A stretch of 11,745 nt of DNA from a virus, in the UHGV virus genome UHGV-1592390; one strand, 5' to 3'. This document shows positions 1-11,745 of the stretch, piece by piece. How positions within the stretch are numbered: the first letter of the stretch is position 1; every line of letters begins with the position of its first letter. The notes below the pieces were generated by a model. That model worked only from the letters and a program-made list of their open reading frames with translations. It was not told the origin of the DNA and searched no databases. Both the position numbers and the translations under genes were made by a program.

Positions 1-74
1 TGATAGAAACAGAAGCCACTGGAGCACCTCAAAAACACCATCATACACTAAATCAGTAAGTTGGCAGCATCACC
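1..74 (-). mobile_element. IS1 terminal fragment (IRL / insA-upstream end); element body lies upstream of the window
   Basis: Bases 1..74 are the reverse complement of the canonical first ~74 bp of IS1 (GGTGATGCTGCCAACTTACTGAT... terminal inverted repeat), ending exactly at 74 (...gcagcatcacc). Recognised from memory of the IS1 sequence; insA/insB would be on the minus strand. Confidence 0.9.
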
Positions 75-83
75 GGAGAGTTC

Positions 84-332
84 TTAATCAGCATTCAGGA
101 GCAATGCGTTATCTATGATGATCTGCTCCCATTCCTCGAATGCCCGATCGCGGACGCCCTGGGGAACGCTGTTAGTTTTGAAATCGACGACCGTCCGCCA
201 TTTTCCGTCCGGACGGTACATGCGCAGAGCTTTACTTCCCCCTTCCCTGCGCACCTCAACGTTATGCTTGTCAGCAAACTCTTGTAATGCTCGTAGCGTC
301 CCATGCTTTACTGTGTAGTATCGCTTTTTCAA
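84..332 (-). CDS. lxc: Small 82-aa protein, likely P1 Lxc/Bof-like modulator of C1 repressor
   Basis: Complete 82-codon ORF. TTG start at 332-330 overlaps the stop of the upstream ORF (TTGA), with a GGAGAG Shine-Dalgarno 5 nt upstream. Size and position (third gene after darB) match my recollection of P1 lxc/bof; the protein sequence itself was not recognised. Stop lies 9 bp from the IS1 end. Confidence 0.55.
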   Translation of the reverse strand: MKKRYYTVKHGTLRALQEFADKHNVEVRREGGSKALRMYRPDGKWRTVVDFKTNSVPQGVRDRAFEEWEQIIIDNALLLNAD

Positions 333-769
333 GTTTTCTCTCCAGCCTGTGCTAAGGCTTCAACTTCCAAATCGTAAGACTCAAACTCATAGTCCTGGTC
401 GTCAACCTCTTCAGGCACTGGCAGTAAATGCCAGGCTGAGTATATCTGACCATTATCAAAACGCTCCTGGCTGTAGAGCGTCGCGGCTATGAGTGTCAGC
501 GCCGGGCGGTCATAACGGTAAATTTTGCGAACGTCACGGTCAACGAGACGACCGAAATTACCATAACCGCGCTCCAGTAATAATTTTTTAATTTCCGGCC
601 AGTATGGGCCATAGCTGCGGTACAGGCGGGGATTTTTCAGTAATCGCCCGCGTAGCCCTGACAGGAAGAAATCAACGTATTCGTCTTCTGTCTTTCCTAA
701 CAATGCCGTACGCAGTACCGCCTCAAGATATGTTTTATTCGGTTTTATTGTATCAGATAGTGTGGCCAT
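329..769 (-). CDS. ulx: 146-aa protein between darB and lxc, probably P1 Ulx-like (Dar system accessory)
   Basis: Complete ORF with ATG at 769-767 and TGA stop overlapping the lxc start. Co-directional and tightly packed with darB, 33 bp downstream of its stop. No recognisable catalytic motif; assignment is by position only. No obvious Shine-Dalgarno; a GC hairpin sits just upstream. Confidence 0.55.
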   Translation of the reverse strand: MATLSDTIKPNKTYLEAVLRTALLGKTEDEYVDFFLSGLRGRLLKNPRLYRSYGPYWPEIKKLLLERGYGNFGRLVDRDVRKIYRYDRPALTLIAATLYSQERFDNGQIYSAWHLLPVPEEVDDQDYEFESYDLEVEALAQAGEKT

Positions 770-778
770 ATTATGCGA

Positions 779-796
779 CGCCCGGCGAACCGGGCG
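779..796 (-). other. GC-rich stem-loop between the darB stop and the ulx start (7-bp stem, UUCG loop on the transcript)
   Basis: Minus-strand transcript reads CGCCCGG-UUCG-CCGGGCG, a perfect 7-bp stem with a UUCG tetraloop, 6 nt after the darB stop and ending 9 nt before the ulx ATG. No U-tract follows, so it is not a typical intrinsic terminator. Confidence 0.4.
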
Positions 797-802
797 CTCC
801 TG

Positions 803-3800
803 TTATGCGTATTGTTGGATGACGGCCAGAACGTCCGCCACGTTGTGTTTTGTCTCGATAATCCACCAGTTACCCGGGAAATCGCTGTTCTTCGCCTTCG
901 CTGGCAGCCAGCGAGCGCCGAATTTCGCCTTGATTGCGTCTTTCGCACGGAAAAGAACGCCTTTCATGCCTGAGGCTTCCTGAAGCCCAAATACCTCGCC
1001 AGCGGCGAATTTTGGTGCGTACATCATCTTCAGGTCGGCGGTGGATACGCGATAATTCAGACCAAGAGACTGAGCTATGCTGGTGGCATCACCCTGTATT
1101 GATGATAACTCTTCTTGTTTCTCGTTTCTGGCGGCAATTTCTTCCTCCGTGATGTTGCCAAGGGCCAGGTTTATCCGATCAGCGTCGGCCTGTTTCTCTT
1201 CATCGGTGCGTCCGGCAAGAACCGTGTTAACTCTCTGCAATATCTCCACATGATTCTTGCGCATGCTGAGCAATTCCGGCGTAACCTCGTTAAGATCCAC
1301 CAGCCCAAGGATGGCAAGGTCGGAAAACATTGATACCAGGTTGTAGGTCATGCGATAGCTGAGTTGACCATAGGCTGATGGCAACTTCACCGCATCCATT
1401 TGATAGGCATCCATAAATTTAGAGCCGTCGTTTACGACATCCGCAATTGCCGGTGTGATTTTTCCTGTGGTGGCGGCCTCCCTGATTGCTGTTACCCACG
1501 ATTGAGTCAGCGCGGCGACTGCATGATTCAGATTGGCTTTCCGTTCTGCTGCAATGCGCGCACTTGCTGCGTCCATTGCCTGCTTGATCTCGTCTTTATT
1601 GCTGTAAATGCCAATGGTGCCAAACTGTGCTGTGGTGATCTCATAATCTGACGCCCGGAACTCATTGGTACCGAAAATGGCATTGGTGACTTCAAGTTCA
1701 GAATCCCCGTTACGAGTAGACCCCTGGCTTGTTTTTTCCGGCATTCTGGCGATCGCATCCGCTATTTTCTCCTGAATTGCTTCAGGGGATAGCGTATCTC
1801 CGTATGACGCGATTACATCGCCATAATTGGAGCCAAACAATTCAACCAGGAATGTTTCTGCCGAACGGATCTGGCGGTTATTCCCTTCCGACATCATACC
1901 AAGCACCCATTTTGCAATTGACGACTTCAGCGCGCCGTCACGGCGATCCGGGTAAACCGCATGCTTCAGTGGGTCCGTATAGGTGCCAACAAAATCAATG
2001 CTATAGCCTGACTCTGTAGTCTGAACGCCGTATGAGTCAGTGATTTTGATCATGCCGCGCTGCTGGAAACGGTAGAAATCGTCACAGGAAATGATGTCGT
2101 TAATCCCGGCGATGGAGACGCCACCACTGATTTTCTGCATAACAGCATCTTCATCGGGAGTTACATCCACCTGTTTATCCAGCGTCTTCACATCCCAGTT
2201 ACCCGATTTGGTGCCTTTGAAGGTAAAGATGATCTCCACGTCTGCGCGCTGGCTGTCGAAGTCCAGCGACTTAATGCGAACGATATCACCGGCACAATCG
2301 TAGTATTGGCCTACACGCCATGAGCGATCGCCGATAACAAGGAACTCACTCGCATGGTTAACCAGGTCAGGATCAACATCCAGAATGCCTTTATTTATTG
2401 CATCCTCCACCAGCGGGCGCAGGCGTTTGATATCCGTCGCGGCCTTCTGAGTACGGTTCAATAATTTCTCATAGCGGGAGATGGCTTGAGTGATATTAGC
2501 CTTGCGCTGAATGGCGCTTTTCAACGACGCGCGATACTGTGCTAACAACATACGGTCTGTGTGATGGACACTCCCCCAGCGGGCCTTCCAGTCTGCGTTA
2601 TCCGCTGCCTTGGCCATTGCCGCCTGTTTGAATTTAGCTACCTCGGCGGTGGTCTTTTCAAGTTCCGCTTTGCTTCGCTCTAATTCAGCGGTAAGTACCT
2701 CCACATCCTCGCCAGCTGCGTGCTGCGCCTTGATGTAGTTCTGAAGGTCGATAGTAGCCTGTTCTTTCTGGCGAGCGCGTTGCGCGGCTTTCGCCTTATC
2801 CATTTGAACCTGCATCATTGCCAGACGTTCGCCATCATCCTTAGCGGTATACATCTGCATTTCGATCATATCGTTGGCGTCGGCGTTCTCCATTTCAGAC
2901 TTATCTGAGCGGAGGATATCGGAGATCCAGCCTGCTTTACGCTTCAGCGTCTTCAGTCGGTATTCATCGAAAGAACCCTTGCCGCAGTAGTAGTGAACGC
3001 GAACGCTTGCACGGTTGGAACCAACTCGGGCACCGCGACCGTTACGCTGTGCGATACTGGCTGGTGTCCATGGCAACGTCAGATGATGGATGTCAGTTGT
3101 TCCTCGATGCAGGTTGATACCCACCTCTGCCTTTTTGTTGCAGATGATGATCGGAGTCCGGCCCTCCTGGAAGTCGGCAGCAATCTTTTCCAGCCCACCC
3201 AGCGACATTTCATTTTGCTGCGCGATATAGGCGTCATACAGAGCCATTTGCTCGTTGTATTTCGCTATCTGTGCATCTGTTGGTTCATCCGGTAGCTCTT
3301 TCGGTGGTTTAACCGCTTTCAGTTTCTTACCGGTTTTACCTGCCTCGGCAACCGTCTGAGCATTCAGGATCCCCACCTTTGAAGGTTCAAGGTTAAGAGC
3401 ATTGCAGATAATGCGCTTGAGCTTCTGGTGTTGCGTTTTTTCATCGGTGAAGATGATTTGCTTACCTTCCGGGAAAAACTCCTTCAGCGTGGCAATCAGC
3501 TTCGCGTATTTGGGCGTAACGGGGTGAGTTACGGTCTGTTCGTCAATGCCAAACTTGGCCAGGCGCTTATTCACTTCCTGCTCAAATGCTTCCGGTACCT
3601 GCAACTGAATAAACTCGCCCTTATCTATCAGGGAGTATTGCGATTGCTGCGTGATCGAATCATCACTGTCGTCGTCTTCGCTGGTGGCTTGTTTAGGCAA
3701 ACTGTCCGCCAGCTGCTGCACCGCATCGGCGTACTCCGGCAGGAAACGATAGGTGATCCTGCGATAGTACAGGTCCATGTCAGTACATACGCGGTCCATA

Positions 3801-6800
3801 TCCCTGATTATTGAGAAGATCGGACGGGCTTTCTCGTGCTCAATCACGCCGTCTTCATTGACCGAGGTCGTTACGCCATTGTTGGCTTTGGCTGCCGCTT
3901 CCGCCTGCTGACGCAATTCTTCATACGCCGCCAGTTGTTCTTCCGTAAGTGGTGCATCCTGCTGGTGTTCGTCCAGTTCCGGGATCTCCACGGTATCCTT
4001 AACGTCTTCCGCCGTTTTAAGCGTTGTCCAGCGATGGAATATGCCGCGCAGCGCATCAAGGTTTTCAAAGCCCACCAGCGCCATTTTTTCTTCAACTTCA
4101 CCGCTGATTTTCTGTACCGTTTCCAGCCTGGTCTTGCCGAAGAATTTTACGAAGTCATCAGGACTGTAGATCCCCATCTTCTGCCAGTATTCCTTCGGCA
4201 GAACATGAGAAAGCATGTTGTATGCATCGATCGGGGTGTTAACGACTGGCGTTGCAGTCAGGAGAACCGGTCCGCGCCCACCATTCTTTTTCATCAGGTA
4301 CGCGTTTTTAATTGCCATATCCCGCGCCGATTGCGCCACCGCGCTGGTGGGCAGATAGGCCAGTTGTGACGCTTCGCGACCATTTTTATAGCTATTGCGG
4401 TAGTTGTGACCTTCGTCAGCGATCACACTATCGAAGCCCATATCCTCAAAGTACGGATACTTCTCTGCTTTTTCGGTGCCGGTATCTGAATACTCCGACA
4501 ATACCCGGCGACGCGCGGCCTCTTTGCGGTGGGAGTCGGAGTCCATTGCGCTGGCTACGCGCCCGGCGGCAACGAAGTCATAAAGCATATCCTGTGCATG
4601 CTCATCTACGGTGTCATCACGTAGCGGAATGCGGGCGTATTGTTCTTTGGTAAACACGACTGCACGGTAATTTGAGTGCGGGATCGCGTTCATCCGCGCC
4701 GTGATAGTGGCTTCATCTGCCAGCTTAAGAGCATCGCGCATAACTGGAGTGCCATCAGTACCAAGAACAGGTTTACCGTTCTCATCGAGCACCGGCACCT
4801 GGCGAATCTGATCGCCATCCATCAGCACATCAAGACCGACGAACAGGTAGTTACTGAATGCCTCTTCACTCAGGAATTCTTTTGCTTCGTAATACCAGTT
4901 TTCCAGCACTGATTTAGGCACTACATACGCAGTACGGGTGGAGCGACCGTTCTCATAGTTGAACGCCTCAAGCGCCAGCGCGGTCGTGGTTTTACCCAGC
5001 CCGGTGCCGAAGCCCAGGATGCCGCGCCCATCTTCGGACAGTCGGCGCACCTCGCTATTCTGGTAATCAAATGGCTGGCGCTTACCGCTTAATCCCTTCA
5101 ACCCAAGCGGATCGCCAGAGTGTTCATACGGGATATTGCTATTGAACACATCGTTGTATTTGGCAACCAGCTCATCGTAGCGATCGTGCGTCTTGATCCA
5201 CTTATTGAACTGGTCCTCAAGCAGTGCCATCTGCTCGCGGTAGCCGTTCGCCGTCGCGCTATCTTTGCCACCGATACGCGCACCATTGAGATACTTTTCC
5301 AGCTGTGCCGGGAACCCGGTCGCGTTTTCACCTGATTTACGGTCCCACTCGTAGCGGATCTCGCCTGTTTCTTTATCCTTGCGCTGGACGACACCGTATC
5401 GGTGCCCGACGAACAGACCATCACCACCGTGATAGGTGTCAGAAACCATTTCGTCGCCTTCCAGCTGCACTGACTGCACATAGCGAAGATCCGGATAGCC
5501 GTTTTCCTGCAAAAATTCCAGAATGACGGAACGGTCGAACCAACGGCTATTGAGCTTAAAGCGGATATTCTCTGCTGGCGTCTTGATGCGCTTCTCTTCG
5601 ATCGCTGCCAGCTGATTAAGGACGTTGTTCTTTACTGGACCGTCGGGGAGTGTGGCAAGGAATTCCTGTTTTGGTACCACTATCTCGTTAATGTCGCCGC
5701 TGGTGGCGCGGGCGAACGGAACAATCCCGCCATACGGTGAAACCGCAATGCCAGGGGTGCTGGCCAATAAATTAAGCAACTCGTCATCACTGGCTGGCAG
5801 TTCGCCGGTAAACGCAAGGCGGAAATCATCGAGCTGGATTGGATCGCGAGTGAGATCACTGTAGAGATAACGCAGGGTGTCCTGATAGCTGGTGGAGTCA
5901 TAACTGGCGCTGGAATCATGCGTAACCAGTTTTCCTGTCAGCTCGTCAGAAATAGTGCCATCCAGCTTAATTGCACCACGGAAAGCAAACCAGGCGCGCG
6001 CACCGCTCCCCGATAATTTCGCTATCGGACCGCGACCGGGGTTACCAAAACGGTCAATCTCTGCCTGCAAACGGGATACCAGAGAAAGGCGCTGCTGTTC
6101 GATTTGTTCAGCACTATGCCCGGCGGCCTTCATGTCCTGATATTCAATTAACATCCGGCCAATCATCGCCCCGCGATACAAGCGTTCACGGTATTTTTCA
6201 GGCTGGCTGTTAATCCAGTCCACCAGCTGCACCATATCGTCGCTGATTGATGTGGTGTACTTATCGCGGACATTTGCCATCTGGGTAAATGTCATACCGA
6301 GACGGCCTTCTGTTGTAGTCAGGTTACGCTGAAGAGCCTCCCAGCTGTCCGCGCCATAACTGGCAACATCAATCTTCAGCTCCTTCCCTGCATCAGCTTC
6401 AATCCAGCGACCACCAGCATATTTTTGCCATACGCCATTAATCAGGCGCATTTCCCCTTCATCAACAACGTCTGCGGTCGGTGACGGTTCAGCCATATTG
6501 AGCAAAGACCAGTCGATACGACTTTCGAAACGATGAATCAGCTTCGCTTTAAGAGCCTGGTTATCAATCTGCCCGTCGGCACGAACCTCAATACGCCCCT
6601 GGAATCCCTTCTCCTGAGTGCCATGAACAAACCGGCGGCCGTCCTTTTCAAACCACTTGCCAGAAATAAACGTTGGCCAAAGCACATTTGCCGATTCAAG
6701 AGTGCCTTCATCCACCAGGGGGATTTTCTCAGCCATCTCCGCCGGATGTTTGCGCATCAGCACCACGTCAACGACCGTACTGGTCCCGTTTGCGTCAAAA

Positions 6801-7570
6801 GTACCGGTAGGCAAGCGGTGGGCACCAAGAAATTCAGCTTTCCGTGATAGGCGCAGGCGTAACCGCTTCATGTTTGAACCTGAAACAATGGACGGCGGCA
6901 CAATCACGCACATGAATCCGCCTGGCTTTATCTTGTCCAGCATGCGGAGCATGAAGTAAGAACCCATGTCCGTTTCTTCTGCGTAAGGCTTATCGATGTT
7001 GCGTGTGTTATCACGACCACCGAACGGAACGTTACCCACAACATGGTCGAATGAATCGTTAGGCGTGCTTACAGCCAGCTGTTCGAACGGGGAAATCTGT
7101 ACGCTGTCTTCCGGGTGTAACAGCTGGTTTATACGACCGGAAACACTGCTGATCTCAGTCGCAGTCATCACCGTACCAACCGGTTTTGTCTCATTAAAAA
7201 CGCCGGTGCCCGCCGATGGTTCCAGAGTGTTACCTACGTCCGCGCCGTAGAGCTTCATGATCTCCCAGACACCTTCAGCGATCGGCTTTGGTGTGTAATA
7301 TTCGGAGACGGACCCGCCAATGCCGCCTTCACCGGTGTACCCAGCCAGGATCTGGCGCTGTTCATCTGTCAGTGTCGCGCCGTCCACCAGCGAATTAAGC
7401 AAATCTATCGCCTTCTGATTCGCCTCCCGGCGCAGTCGGTCATAGCTTTTGCCTTCCACCTTTTCCACGCCGTATTTAATCGGCGCTCGGTGAGATGTTA
7501 TTGCCCTAATGTATTTCAATATTTCGCTGACACTTGAACAGCGAAACACCCCCATAGATAGCTTGTTCAT
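803..7570 (-). CDS. darB: Giant (2255 aa) N6-adenine methyltransferase / SF2 helicase fusion; P1 DarB-like antirestriction protein
   Basis: Uninterrupted 6768-nt ORF with ATG at 7570 and an AAGGA Shine-Dalgarno 6 nt upstream. Gamma-class amino-methyltransferase motifs read from the translation: YYTP (aa 91-94), motif I LEPSAGTGVF (aa 116-125, nt ~7196-7225), motif IV NVPF (aa 180-183, nt 7022-7033). Helicase motifs: Walker A GFGTGLGKTT (aa 853-862, nt 4985-5014), DEGH (aa 1052-1055, nt 4406-4417), motif III LLTATP (aa 1103-1108), motif VI QRNGRGAR (aa 1508-1515, nt 3026-3049). Length and architecture match my recollection of P1 DarB. The C-terminal ~700 aa has a coiled-coil-like stretch and no recognisable motif. 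Confidence 0.85.
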   Translation of the reverse strand: MNKLSMGVFRCSSVSEILKYIRAITSHRAPIKYGVEKVEGKSYDRLRREANQKAIDLLNSLVDGATLTDEQRQILAGYTGEGGIGGSVSEYYTPKPIAEGVWEIMKLYGADVGNTLEPSAGTGVFNETKPVGTVMTATEISSVSGRINQLLHPEDSVQISPFEQLAVSTPNDSFDHVVGNVPFGGRDNTRNIDKPYAEETDMGSYFMLRMLDKIKPGGFMCVIVPPSIVSGSNMKRLRLRLSRKAEFLGAHRLPTGTFDANGTSTVVDVVLMRKHPAEMAEKIPLVDEGTLESANVLWPTFISGKWFEKDGRRFVHGTQEKGFQGRIEVRADGQIDNQALKAKLIHRFESRIDWSLLNMAEPSPTADVVDEGEMRLINGVWQKYAGGRWIEADAGKELKIDVASYGADSWEALQRNLTTTEGRLGMTFTQMANVRDKYTTSISDDMVQLVDWINSQPEKYRERLYRGAMIGRMLIEYQDMKAAGHSAEQIEQQRLSLVSRLQAEIDRFGNPGRGPIAKLSGSGARAWFAFRGAIKLDGTISDELTGKLVTHDSSASYDSTSYQDTLRYLYSDLTRDPIQLDDFRLAFTGELPASDDELLNLLASTPGIAVSPYGGIVPFARATSGDINEIVVPKQEFLATLPDGPVKNNVLNQLAAIEEKRIKTPAENIRFKLNSRWFDRSVILEFLQENGYPDLRYVQSVQLEGDEMVSDTYHGGDGLFVGHRYGVVQRKDKETGEIRYEWDRKSGENATGFPAQLEKYLNGARIGGKDSATANGYREQMALLEDQFNKWIKTHDRYDELVAKYNDVFNSNIPYEHSGDPLGLKGLSGKRQPFDYQNSEVRRLSEDGRGILGFGTGLGKTTTALALEAFNYENGRSTRTAYVVPKSVLENWYYEAKEFLSEEAFSNYLFVGLDVLMDGDQIRQVPVLDENGKPVLGTDGTPVMRDALKLADEATITARMNAIPHSNYRAVVFTKEQYARIPLRDDTVDEHAQDMLYDFVAAGRVASAMDSDSHRKEAARRRVLSEYSDTGTEKAEKYPYFEDMGFDSVIADEGHNYRNSYKNGREASQLAYLPTSAVAQSARDMAIKNAYLMKKNGGRGPVLLTATPVVNTPIDAYNMLSHVLPKEYWQKMGIYSPDDFVKFFGKTRLETVQKISGEVEEKMALVGFENLDALRGIFHRWTTLKTAEDVKDTVEIPELDEHQQDAPLTEEQLAAYEELRQQAEAAAKANNGVTTSVNEDGVIEHEKARPIFSIIRDMDRVCTDMDLYYRRITYRFLPEYADAVQQLADSLPKQATSEDDDSDDSITQQSQYSLIDKGEFIQLQVPEAFEQEVNKRLAKFGIDEQTVTHPVTPKYAKLIATLKEFFPEGKQIIFTDEKTQHQKLKRIICNALNLEPSKVGILNAQTVAEAGKTGKKLKAVKPPKELPDEPTDAQIAKYNEQMALYDAYIAQQNEMSLGGLEKIAADFQEGRTPIIICNKKAEVGINLHRGTTDIHHLTLPWTPASIAQRNGRGARVGSNRASVRVHYYCGKGSFDEYRLKTLKRKAGWISDILRSDKSEMENADANDMIEMQMYTAKDDGERLAMMQVQMDKAKAAQRARQKEQATIDLQNYIKAQHAAGEDVEVLTAELERSKAELEKTTAEVAKFKQAAMAKAADNADWKARWGSVHHTDRMLLAQYRASLKSAIQRKANITQAISRYEKLLNRTQKAATDIKRLRPLVEDAINKGILDVDPDLVNHASEFLVIGDRSWRVGQYYDCAGDIVRIKSLDFDSQRADVEIIFTFKGTKSGNWDVKTLDKQVDVTPDEDAVMQKISGGVSIAGINDIISCDDFYRFQQRGMIKITDSYGVQTTESGYSIDFVGTYTDPLKHAVYPDRRDGALKSSIAKWVLGMMSEGNNRQIRSAETFLVELFGSNYGDVIASYGDTLSPEAIQEKIADAIARMPEKTSQGSTRNGDSELEVTNAIFGTNEFRASDYEITTAQFGTIGIYSNKDEIKQAMDAASARIAAERKANLNHAVAALTQSWVTAIREAATTGKITPAIADVVNDGSKFMDAYQMDAVKLPSAYGQLSYRMTYNLVSMFSDLAILGLVDLNEVTPELLSMRKNHVEILQRVNTVLAGRTDEEKQADADRINLALGNITEEEIAARNEKQEELSSIQGDATSIAQSLGLNYRVSTADLKMMYAPKFAAGEVFGLQEASGMKGVLFRAKDAIKAKFGARWLPAKAKNSDFPGNWWIIETKHNVADVLAVIQQYA

Positions 7571-10367
<2,797 letters not shown>

Positions 10368-10371
10368 CCAC

Positions 10372-10405
10372 CAAAAATAACCCCGGCGGCTGCCGGGGTT
10401 CTCGT
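10372..10405. terminator. Bidirectional intrinsic terminator between convergent pro (+) and lyz/orf84 (-) transcripts
   Basis: Perfect 7-bp GC stem CCCCGGC (10381-10387), loop GGCT, GCCGGGG (10392-10398). On the minus strand it is followed by TTATTTTTGG (strong U-tract); on the plus strand it is preceded by an A-tract and followed by the weaker TTCTCGTT. Lies 14 nt after the pro stop and 14 nt after the orf84 stop. Confidence 0.7.
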
Positions 10406-10411
10406 TAACTA

Positions 10412-10666
10412 TTATCGCCTTCGCCTGCGTGCCATATATTTGCGCACCGCGCGGCGTGGACAATCTGAAGCGGTTTCTTTCTGCTGCATCAATCTTGCAG
10501 CCATGCTCAAAAATGTCAGGCACAGCCGAAGCCCGGCATACAATAGCGGTTCCAGTGGCCACGTCTCATTGAGCACATATACCGCCATGAAAATCGAGTC
10601 AAAAACTATCGCCGCCAGCGATAACTTCATTGTCGAAAGTCGGCGGAGCTGCCGGAGTTTATTCAT
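10412..10666 (-). CDS. Hypothetical 84-aa small membrane protein, translationally coupled to lyz; holin-like features
   Basis: ATG at 10666-10664 overlaps the lyz stop (ATGAATAA arrangement). One clear hydrophobic segment (LSLAAIVFDSIFMAVYVL), a second weaker one, and a strongly basic C-terminus (RRAVRKYMARRRRR). Ends 14 nt before the terminator hairpin. Codon usage looks ordinary. No homology could be checked. Confidence 0.4.
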   Translation of the reverse strand: MNKLRQLRRLSTMKLSLAAIVFDSIFMAVYVLNETWPLEPLLYAGLRLCLTFLSMAARLMQQKETASDCPRRAVRKYMARRRRR

Positions 10667-11216
10667 TGACCAGTCCCGTCAGGCAAAGCTGGCGTTCTTT
10701 TTCACGGCGAATCTTTAAACCTCGCAGGGGCACGCCGTTACTGTTCACGAAATCAGGGAGATGGTTACACATATTCACCCATTCCCCTTTCTGCGCCCAC
10801 TTGTGGATGGACGTTTCTACTCGCATGCCTCGCGCTTTGCTGTAGTAGGTCCGTAAGCTATTGCATCCCATATTGAATGCCGCGCTTGTCATTGCACTGA
10901 AGGCATTATCGGGCATGTCTTTGCCCCGGAAGTGCTGATTAATACAGCGTTCAGCGATCAGGATATTCTTTTCCCAATCAGCGGCGATTTGCTGGTCTGT
11001 TTTTCGCACACCCGGCGTTACCCCGTGTGTATTACCGATCCCGTCAGTCCATACCCCTGCCGGGCACATGTATGGATCACGTCGGCAACCTTCAGCGTTA
11101 CCAATCAGCTCAAGCCCCGCCTGGTTGGTTCGCACATTGCCATTACCCATCACGATGGTAATCATCACCGCGATAGCGCAAATTGCACCGCCTCCTGCGG
11201 CTGTTTTTCCCTTCAT
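10659..11216 (-). CDS. lyz: SAR (signal-arrest-release) endolysin, P1 Lyz, 185 aa
   Basis: From ATG 11216-11214 (GAGGT Shine-Dalgarno 5 nt upstream) the translation begins MKGKTAAGGGAICAIAVMITIVMGNGNVRTN..., with the N-terminal SAR transmembrane segment containing Cys13, then E42 and the Cys44/Cys51 pair (NAEGCRRDPYMC) characteristic of P1 Lyz as I recall it. The ORF track's longer 218-aa version adds an in-frame 33-aa extension with no ribosome-binding site. Confidence 0.93.
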   Translation of the reverse strand: MKGKTAAGGGAICAIAVMITIVMGNGNVRTNQAGLELIGNAEGCRRDPYMCPAGVWTDGIGNTHGVTPGVRKTDQQIAADWEKNILIAERCINQHFRGKDMPDNAFSAMTSAAFNMGCNSLRTYYSKARGMRVETSIHKWAQKGEWVNMCNHLPDFVNSNGVPLRGLKIRREKERQLCLTGLVNE

Positions 11217-11299
11217 AAAGACCTCATAAGCGAATTTTTTACGCTCCAGGACAAACACCCATTCACAGCCAATACCGACTGACTCGATCCCTTTAGAAG

Positions 11300-11326
11300 A
11301 CACAGGATAATGCAAATCACTTGTTA
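11300..11326 (-). promoter_or_regulatory. Candidate late promoter for lyz (shared box plus -10-like hexamer)
   Basis: On the lyz-sense strand: TAACAAGTGA (complement of 11317-11326), 4 nt, then CATTAT (complement of 11307-11312). Same decamer and geometry as upstream of prt. Predicted start near 11300, about 84 nt upstream of the lyz ATG. Confidence 0.35.
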
Positions 11327-11366
11327 GCTACGTTTCAAAGATATACATTATTGCTCTAATTATTTT
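11321..11366 (+). promoter_or_regulatory. Candidate sigma70 promoter for ssb overlapped by a C1-repressor operator-like site
   Basis: -35 TTGTTA (11321-11326), 17-bp spacer, -10 TACATT (11344-11349). Immediately downstream, ATTGCTCTAATTATTTT (11350-11366) matches the P1 C1 operator consensus ATTGCTCTAATAAATTT as I recall it at 15 of 17 positions. ssb GTG start follows at 11386. Confidence 0.5.
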
Positions 11367-11385
11367 ATTTTATTAGGTAAGAAAA

Positions 11386-11670
11386 GTGGCACAACGCGGT
11401 GTAAACAAAGTCATCCTGATTGGTACCCTGGGGCAAGACCCGGAGATCAGGTATATACCAAATGGCGGAGCAGTCGGAAGACTCAGCATCGCAACGAATG
11501 AATCATGGCGCGACAAGCAAACGGGCCAACAGAAAGAGCAAACAGAATGGCATAAAGTCGTTTTGTTCGGAAAACTTGCTGAAATTGCGAGTGAGTATTT
11601 ACGAAAAGGTTCTCAGGTCTACATCGAAGGGAAACTTAAAACCCGTAAGTGGACAGATGACGCCGGTGTA
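11386..11670 (+). pseudogene. ssb: Single-stranded DNA-binding protein gene, 5' portion only (codons 1-95), disrupted by IS1
   Basis: GTG start at 11386 with an AGGTAAG Shine-Dalgarno-like sequence upstream. Translation [95 protein letters not shown] aligns with the N-terminal OB-fold of E. coli SSB ([31 protein letters not shown]...KWTDQSG). After codon 95 the frame runs into IS1 sequence and is open to the window edge; the rest of the OB-fold, the Gly-rich linker and the acidic C-terminal tail are missing. Not in the ORF track because no stop occurs in-window. Confidence 0.85.
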
Positions 11671-11745
11671 GGTAATGACTCCAACTTATTGATAGTGTTT
11701 TATGTTCAGATAATGCCCGATGACTTTGTCATGCAGCTCCACCGA
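11671..11745 (-). mobile_element. IS1 terminal fragment (IRR / insB-distal end); element body continues downstream of the window
   Basis: GGTAATGACTCCAACTTATTGATAGTG... from 11671 is the IS1 right inverted repeat and adjacent sequence, read as the reverse complement of the canonical orientation. Same orientation as the IS1 end at 1..74. Confidence 0.9.

Follow-up and report, generated by a model that had tools for sequence, protein, structure and literature searches.

A P1-like lxc-ssb block on a metagenomic contig that ends in IS1 on both sides

That IS1 occurs within and near the variable regions of P1 is classical knowledge, and IS-bounded cargo in P1-like phage-plasmids has already been described for resistance genes. 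In the annotation of P1 (NC_005856), the relevant genes follow the order res, mod, lxc, ulx, darB, prt, pro, lydE, lydD, lyz, ssb, isaA, IS1 and isaB, in agreement with what a preliminary description of the DNA studied here stated about the P1 map. Two variable regions have been defined in P1-like plasmids, RD-1 (P1 3,469-9,749) and RD-2 (P1 21,540-24,243), which are the res-mod region and the isaA-IS1-isaB region, respectively, and the block between them is conserved (PMC6906374, PMC9603915). The resident IS1 of P1 is flanked by a 9-bp duplication, tgccctctg.

The window analysed here is the whole stretch of 11,745 nucleotides of the virus genome UHGV-1592390. Its interior is collinear with P1 9750-21336, with one gap and 98.4% identity, and the P1-like backbone order lxc-ulx-darB-prt-pro-lydE-lydD-lyz-ssb is preserved throughout; P1 also shares with it the IS1 sequence and the IS1 orientation relative to the backbone. 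The closest backbone was found in the E. coli IncY plasmid pMB9698_1 (NZ_CP103469.1), which matches the interior at 99.8% over 11,599 bases without a gap. All eight complete genes, from lxc to lyz, are open. The features of the window are as follows, with genes named from the P1 annotation and supported by open frames and, for lxc, also by collinear alignment.

1..74, minus strand: IS1, IRL-side end, 74/74 identical to the P1 IS1; the element runs off the left contig end
75..83, no strand: inner flank ggagagttc, 9 bp, the target duplication if the left IS1 is a simple insertion
84..332, minus strand: lxc, C1 repressor modulator, 82 aa, intact, with no internal stop
329..769, minus strand: ulx, 146 aa, intact
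803..7570, minus strand: darB, anti-restriction methylase/helicase, 2255 aa, intact
7646..9355, plus strand: prt, portal, 569 aa, intact
9348..10367, plus strand: pro, head processing, 339 aa, intact
10347-10562, minus strand: lydE, putative antiholin, intact
10412-10666, minus strand: lydD, putative holin, intact
10659..11216, minus strand: lyz, endolysin, 185 aa, intact
11350..11366, plus strand: Ossb (Op21), C1 operator preceding ssb, matching the operator annotated in P1 at 16/17 positions
11386..11670, plus strand: ssb', codons 1-95 of 162, GTG start at 11386, from translation against the intact Ssb of pMB9698_1 and the fusion in L002 and L003
11662..11670, no strand: inner flank gccggtgta, 9 bp, adjoining the right IS1 end
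11671..11745, minus strand: IS1, IRR-side end, 74/75 identical to the P1 IS1; the element runs off the right contig end

Both edges of the window are IS1 termini in the same orientation, as had been noticed in the preliminary description. Positions 1-74 are the final 74 bases of the P1 resident IS1 in the plus-strand reading of P1, and positions 11671-11745 correspond to its first 75 bases with a sole mismatch, which falls on the base annotated in the P1 record as a mutant terminal repeat; the window therefore carries the ordinary inverted repeat. End sequence and imperfect terminal inverted repeats of IS1 are present at both edges, with 18 of 23 nucleotides matching between IRL and IRR. IS1 matches of such length and identity lie far beyond chance. 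Both pieces align plus/plus to the P1 IS1, a minus-strand feature in the P1 annotation, and they are therefore minus-strand in the window as well, in direct orientation, with 74 and 75 bases visible, the IRL end facing lxc and the IRR end facing ssb.

Both IS1 positions depart from the P1 reference. On the left, the lxc stop codon occupies 84-86 (minus strand), so the IS1 end lies exactly 9 bp past lxc, whereas mod and res adjoin lxc in P1. The uninterrupted site in pMB9698_1 reads ...ctaggcc, then GGAGAGTTC, then ttaatc, and ggagagttc lies there within a 41-bp gap between lxc and a convergent SIR2-family gene. On the right, the IRR end is joined to ssb after codon 95, whereas the single IS1 of P1 follows an intact ssb and isaA, 1,289 bp beyond the ssb site of the window; the remainder of ssb beyond gccggtgta begins gaacgttacacg. 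Plasmid pMB9698_1 has no IS1 at either site, its ssb being intact and followed by two hypothetical genes. The placement of one IS1 9 bp past lxc and of another inside ssb was thus read correctly at first sight, as was the point that the inner 9-bp flanks differ and so cannot have arisen as the duplicated target of a single simple insertion.

The window is the entire contig NODE_1310_length_11745_cov_4.927923 of ENA assembly ERZ507907, with name and length in exact agreement. This is a metaSPAdes-style contig from a short-read metagenome, with a k-mer coverage of about 5x (4.93). Assembly halted some 75 bases inside each IS1, a 768-bp repeat that the assembler was unable to pass, and an entire contig with IS1 at either end is what any unique segment between repeat copies would give. 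The "bracketing" by IS1 is mostly an assembly effect, and the earlier caution about a possible artefact across IS1 was well placed. Other draft contigs break at the identical ssb::IS1 junction, with 77 or 54 IS1 bases, and such stops are the mark of repeat-induced breaks. The methodological lesson is that, when a window starts and finishes in one IS, it usually represents an entire short-read contig and not a mobile module. Apart from the window itself, a look-up of the exact DarB protein gave a single metagenome contig, L005, which carries no IS1 and differs from the window at the 3' end of lxc. Within the window, a search for internal repeats and IS fragments gave only short repeats at chance level, and base composition is flat except for an AT-richer ssb promoter region.

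Taken together, the window probably represents the conserved lxc-ssb block of a P1-like phage-plasmid on a whole short-read contig, with two direct IS1 copies abutting it and the assembler having halted in each. The block lxc-ulx-darB-prt-pro-lydED-lyz-ssb would come from a P1-like phage-plasmid with the IncY plasmid pMB9698_1 as its closest relative, the left IS1 would sit in the short spacer beyond lxc at the border of RD-1 (res-mod), and the right IS1 would sit within ssb, 203 bp short of the border of RD-2 (isaA-IS1-isaB). We infer that the contig ends belong to two separate full-length IS1 copies within a larger replicon, and that each copy may be a simple insertion or, towards the adjoining variable region, the inner arm of IS1-bounded cargo or of a deletion next to IS1. 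The finding is an ordinary one, a P1-like plasmid with two IS1 insertion alleles in regions already known to be hot, and the enclosed block is ordinary conserved backbone between two published variable regions. Its overall significance is small.

The right junction is already public: two complete plasmids of the IncY type carry it, NZ_CP061756.1 (E. coli O18ac:H14 873.10) and NZ_CP034659.1 (ATCC 98082), as do about 70 draft contigs. An exact 30-mer of this junction found one further metagenome contig, OGYE01000896.1, which also breaks in IS1, and the 30-mer had no match in IMG/VR or in the GTDB representative genomes. The left junction was absent from IMG/VR, the JGI metagenomes and the GTDB representative genomes by exact 30-mers, and gave no BLAST match in PLSDB or in 5,426 complete E. 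coli genomes. The nearest counterpart on this side is E. coli H15 plasmid A (NZ_CP010179.1), where an IS1-family copy lies just past lxc at the RD-1 border in the orientation seen in the window. That copy is the isoform IS1SD, it stands 38 bp past the lxc stop instead of 9 bp, with a different intervening sequence, and it forms one arm of an IS1-bounded Dyp-peroxidase/encapsulin cargo. IS1 adjoining the lxc-ssb block is common: among the best 40 plasmid matches, 14 included IS1 ends within the joined match. In the Salmonella plasmid pSZL38.1, IS1 lies just after ssb.

Public assemblies of E. coli and Salmonella contain the ssb::IS1 junction widely, whereas the window has it on a different ssb allele. 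All of the about 70 public contigs with the fusion carry an allele other than that of the window; in the public cluster of fusion proteins, 8/8 variants have D20/K48/I59/I64, and the window has E20/Q48/V59/L64. The window-type ssb SNPs span 11523-11595, leaving the nearest nucleotide difference 75 nt from the junction. The window shares neither the ssb allele nor the backbone lineage of the other carriers, a pairing of allele and junction that may be of use to studies of IS1 target choice or of recombination among P1-like plasmids.

A more specific version of the main explanation, which we regard as possible but hold only tentatively, is that the right IS1 is the left arm of a Tn6011-like unit, IS1-mrkABCDF-IS1, encoding type 3 fimbriae. 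Composite transposons carrying mrkABCDF have precedent, as in Tn6011 (PMC3402527). In both complete plasmids, an IS1 occupies the same ssb nucleotide in the same orientation as in the window and is followed by mrkABCDF and then by a second, inverted IS1; next to the IRL end of IS1 in L002, the sequence upstream of mrkA begins gaacaaatgtataatttccgg. Moreover, positions 1-77 of the window equal the mrkF-side IS1 junction of these plasmids, including three flank bases, an agreement at chance level (1/64). Against this reading, the window contains no mrk sequence, the public fusions all carry the other ssb allele, and the backbone shows 1.7-1.8% divergence from that of the window, continuing to within 75 nt of the junction, with four Ssb residues changed. 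At the lxc border these plasmids have no IS1 and carry an HTH gene, an EAL gene and ars genes instead. A mosaic between the pMB9698_1 type and the mrk lineage was considered and rejected, the differences of the window from pMB9698_1 being ordinary scattered variants. The complete plasmids examined do extend the range of IS-bounded cargo to fimbrial, arsenic-resistance and peroxidase/encapsulin genes.

IS1 classically produces adjacent deletions, and one or both junctions could have arisen in this way and not by fresh insertion, for example if a P1-type resident IS1 in RD-2 had removed, starting at its IRR end, isaA together with the 3' 203 bp of ssb. The resident IS1 of P1 has the same orientation, stands 1,289 bp beyond the ssb site and turns its IRR end towards ssb. 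In addition, neither the ssb remainder nor a 9-bp duplication was present past the second IS1 of the two mrk plasmids when both were sought, and the DNA beyond it had no match in P1 or in the phage collection. Yet pMB9698_1, the closest backbone relative, has no IS1 in RD-2, and the IRR of the window lacks the mutant base of P1's own copy, which makes this origin rather unlikely for the junctions seen here; deletion or rearrangement beyond the IS1 copies of the window, as the preliminary description suggested, is possible.

Recurrence of one junction on two alleles also bears on target choice. It is doubtful, though conceivable, that the ssb nucleotide after codon 95 is a true IS1 hot spot, hit independently and in the same orientation in at least two diverged lineages, and that the lxc border is likewise a preferred landing site. 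If so, hot spots at both borders would let IS1-bounded cargo swap in and out of the variable regions flanking the anti-restriction and head block.

The same pairing could instead reflect the assembly. The junction is otherwise known only on a different ssb allele whose last difference lies 75 nt away, and therefore there is room at about 5x for a strain-chimeric contig, in which a body of the pMB9698_1 type with intact ssb would have been joined to IS1-junction reads from a second P1-like plasmid of the mrk type. No other sequence pairs this junction with this allele, coverage is low, and the lineages do not differ anywhere in the final 75 nt of ssb' and the first IS1 base (76 nt), which is enough to merge paths in a k=55 graph. 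However, the contig is unbroken at 11596, the point at which the two alleles would converge, and continues for about 75 nt of IS1. Its ends, 74 and 75 bases long, are those expected of a k=77 graph, and an isolate contig ending with exactly 77 IS1 bases fits such a graph too. There, the allele at 11595 and the IS1-specific base 11672 must be physically joined within one 78-mer, and a chimera would further require a coverage gap of the dominant strain exactly at the junction. We consider a chimera improbable.

Direct IS1 repeats can flank composite transposons, as in Tn9, and homologous recombination between direct repeats frees a circle. It is nevertheless extremely improbable that the 11.6-kb block and its two direct IS1 copies form a composite transposon, or an excised 12.4-kb circle with one IS1: the topology of the contig is compatible with both, but no record in PLSDB, the 5,426 complete E. 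coli genomes, IMG/VR, the JGI metagenomes or the GTDB representatives carries both junctions or even the left one, so that no second IS-bounded unit in an unrelated context was found in these collections, the full-length matches listed are all P1-family phages or enterobacterial plasmids with unchanged gene order and no record was seen to carry the block outside that order, the P1 replication genes repA and repL are not among its genes according to the P1 annotation and map, and excision would take away prt, pro and lyz, scored essential (PMC10695390). The suggestion of a special composite-transposon-like module is not supported, the window being a whole contig with a normal backbone block. 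Any pair of direct IS1 copies can recombine, a generic capacity that is not evidence of function, and nothing shows the block moving as a composite transposon or excising.

The sole functional consequence to be seen in the sequence is that the phage Ssb lacks its C-terminal 67 residues. The ssb' frame runs on into IS1 and, by analogy with L002, would stop two codons past the contig end. In a CRISPRi map of P1, ssb was scored non-essential, and prt, pro and lyz were scored essential (PMC10695390). A 117-aa Ssb variant, P0006, with a frameshift directly after codon 95, was considered as a possible footprint of IS1 excision and rejected, since it differs by a single extra G, which we read as a sequencing error because neighbouring genes in that contig, including the lysozyme gene, are also called as fragments.

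IS1 sequence was found at both edges of the window. Positions 1-74 are identical to the last 74 bases of the resident IS1 of phage P1, read on the P1 plus strand (74/74), and positions 11671-11745 match its first 75 bases at 74 positions. The sole mismatch lies at the base annotated as a mutant terminal repeat in the P1 record, and the window therefore carries the ordinary repeat. Both pieces have the orientation of the P1 IS1 (annotated on the minus strand), so the two copies are directly oriented, with IRL toward lxc and IRR toward ssb. The features at the two junctions are:

75-83, left inner flank, ggagagttc
84-86, minus strand, lxc stop codon, placing IS1 9 bp past it
11386, GTG start of the interrupted ssb (ssb'), cut after codon 95 of 162, the frame continuing into IS1
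11662-11670, right inner flank, gccggtgta

The preliminary description had reported IS1 termini in one orientation at both edges, unlike inner 9-bp flanks, and insertions just past lxc and inside ssb; all the features it described are present in the sequence.

An exact match to the 2255-aa DarB protein (803-7570) led to ena:ERZ507907:NODE_1310_length_11745_cov_4.927923, which has the same size and sequence as the window. The window is therefore an entire contig, not a slice of a longer sequence, and both its ends are assembly ends. ERZ507907 is a short-read metagenome assembly, in which this contig has approximately 5x k-mer coverage. A unique segment in a de Bruijn graph stops at the first k-mer it has in common with further copies of a repeat. 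The IS1 stretch at the end of one isolate contig measures exactly 77 bases and that of another contig 54, fitting k=77 and k=55. The window has 74 (left) and 75 (right) IS1 bases, which fits k=77 if another IS1 copy in the sample happens to have the same 3 and 2 flank bases, and k=55 if the sample's other IS1 variants differ near the repeat tips. Under either value, we infer that the window stops at branch points of the graph within IS1 and that neither end is a biological one. Positions 1-77, including three flank bases (gga), are identical to 26140-26216 of the IncY plasmid NZ_CP061756.1, at the mrkF-side junction of its second IS1. The three-base flank match is at chance level (1/64), and the 77-base identity would fit a k=77 graph vertex common with such an IS1 copy in the sample.

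Between the IS1 ends, window 84-11671 aligns to P1 9750-21336 as a single collinear block with one gap and 98.4% identity, and window 73-11671 aligns without gaps to the E. coli IncY plasmid pMB9698_1 (99.8%, 22 differences). Each of lxc, ulx, darB, prt, pro, lydE, lydD and lyz has an open frame as long as its P1 counterpart, the C1 operator 5' of ssb is kept (16/17), and no internal IS fragments or notable repeats were found within the window. In P1-like phage-plasmids, res-mod (RD-1, P1 3,469-9,749) and isaA-IS1-isaB (RD-2, P1 21,540-24,243) are variable regions, and the operons between them are conserved (PMC6906374; PMC9603915). The window interior is exactly this conserved intervening block. 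The left IS1 lies at the RD-1 border, and the right IS1 lies in ssb, just ahead (203 bp) of the RD-2 border. The equivalent of the left site in pMB9698_1 falls within the 41 bp that separate lxc from a convergent SIR2-family gene, and that of the right site falls in an intact ssb. This plasmid, the closest relative, has the SIR2-family gene (5666-6970) in place of the type III res-mod genes beside lxc, and two hypothetical genes (19005-20880) in place of isaA-IS1-isaB after ssb. The two variable regions resemble interchangeable defence or accessory slots. A metagenome contig (ena:ERZ27258573:k141_17367) encodes a DarB identical to that of the window and differs at 18 of 11,399 aligned bases. 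Eight of the 18 differences cluster in the final 90 bp of lxc (window 88-174), and past the lxc stop codon the contig shows no relation to the window; it thus seems that the RD-1 recombination boundary in this element falls within the 3' end of lxc.

IS1 adjoining the lxc-to-ssb block is common. P1 has one IS1, flanked by the 9-bp duplication tgccctctg, and IS1 ends were also matched nearby in 14 of the 40 best plasmid matches. In Salmonella pSZL38.1, IS1 directly follows ssb and precedes tail-fibre genes. E. coli H15 plasmid A carries IS1SD 38 bp past lxc, in the orientation of the window's left IS1. In that plasmid (1371-6074), direct IS1-family copies, IS1A and IS1SD, flank a Dyp-type peroxidase and encapsulin shell gene pair adjoining lxc; darB lacks an annotation there, although the PLSDB feature table has gaps. 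No second instance of the left junction was found in PLSDB, 5,426 complete E. coli genomes, IMG/VR, JGI metagenomes or GTDB representative genomes. As an insertion site the left junction is new; a known one lies 29 bp away.

Most likely, the window derives from a larger P1-like replicon with two separate IS1 copies, each the mark of a transposition, or of something that followed from a transposition, where a variable region begins or ends, and the short-read assembler broke at both. In two complete IncY plasmids, NZ_CP061756.1 and NZ_CP034659.1, IS1 interrupts ssb at the very base used in the window and points the same way; after it come mrkABCDF and a second IS1, in inverted orientation, an arrangement resembling the mrk composite transposon Tn6011 (PMC3402527). 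That the right IS1 is an arm of such an mrk unit is a tentative possibility, compatible with two separate IS1 copies in a larger replicon. Past the second IS1 of these plasmids (NZ_CP061756.1 26911-28353 and its equivalent in NZ_CP034659.1), neither an ssb remainder nor a 9-bp duplication was found, and no match was obtained to P1 or the phage collection; adjacent DNA was therefore lost with or after the insertion there. Both plasmids have a deletion or replacement beside the mrk unit. An origin of one or both window junctions by IS1-adjacent deletion, also compatible with the proposed reading, is rather unlikely. The preliminary description's composite-transposon-like module, or an excised 12.4-kb circle, is highly improbable, since the block lacks a P1 replication gene and, among the full-length matches listed, occurs in no other setting than phages and plasmids of the P1 family that keep the standard gene order.

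The ssb::IS1 junction of the window also ends the metagenome contig OGYE01000896.1 (JGI/ENA; 54 IS1 bases) and the E. coli draft contig JAWHYZ010000068.1 (77 IS1 bases), and the predicted Ssb'-IS1 fusion protein, used as a query, gave a cluster of eight distinct sequences on ~70 contigs from E. coli and Salmonella. All of these, like both complete plasmids, have the Ssb residues D20, K48, I59 and I64; the window has E20, Q48, V59 and L64, and is the only ssb::IS1 instance found with that allele. The junction lies within window 11386-11745 and NZ_CP061756.1 19300-19665, and also in NZ_CP034659.1 and the loci L007 and L010. Nucleotide divergence from the D20/K48/I59/I64 lineage is 1.7-1.8% throughout, and the difference nearest the junction lies 75 nt away, at 11595. 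Three explanations remain for the junction on a diverged allele: an independent IS1 insertion at a hot spot, an old insertion whose flank was later replaced when P1-like plasmids recombined, and, with low probability, an assembly that joins two strains. A 76-nt stretch identical in both lineages would permit such a chimera if k=55. If k=77, a 78-mer joining the window-type base 11595 to the IS1-specific base 11672 must have existed in the data, which speaks against it.

The visible consequence of the right IS1 is a truncated phage Ssb. In P1, ssb, lxc, ulx and darB were scored as non-essential, and prt, pro and lyz as essential (PMC10695390). Recombination between the direct IS1 copies would delete prt, pro and lyz, giving a defective prophage-plasmid; such potential is a generic property of direct repeats. 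The window shows IS1 in a plasmid of the P1 family, at regions already known to vary, and its right junction is already public in complete plasmids and many drafts. The sole point for specialist follow-up is the occurrence of ssb::IS1 at the same nucleotide on a diverged allele.

An 83-aa TTG ORF (11420-11671) from the mechanical ORF list was rejected as a gene, being out of the ssb frame; it is closed by an out-of-frame TAG that the junction creates at 11669-11671 (ta from ssb, g from IS1). In CATKVD010000003.1 (1710-1725), one extra G directly after ssb codon 95 (ggtgtGagaacg) gives a 117-aa frameshifted Ssb. An IS1 excision footprint is disfavoured here, and the extra G is probably a long-read indel error, because the adjacent lysozyme gene is also split.
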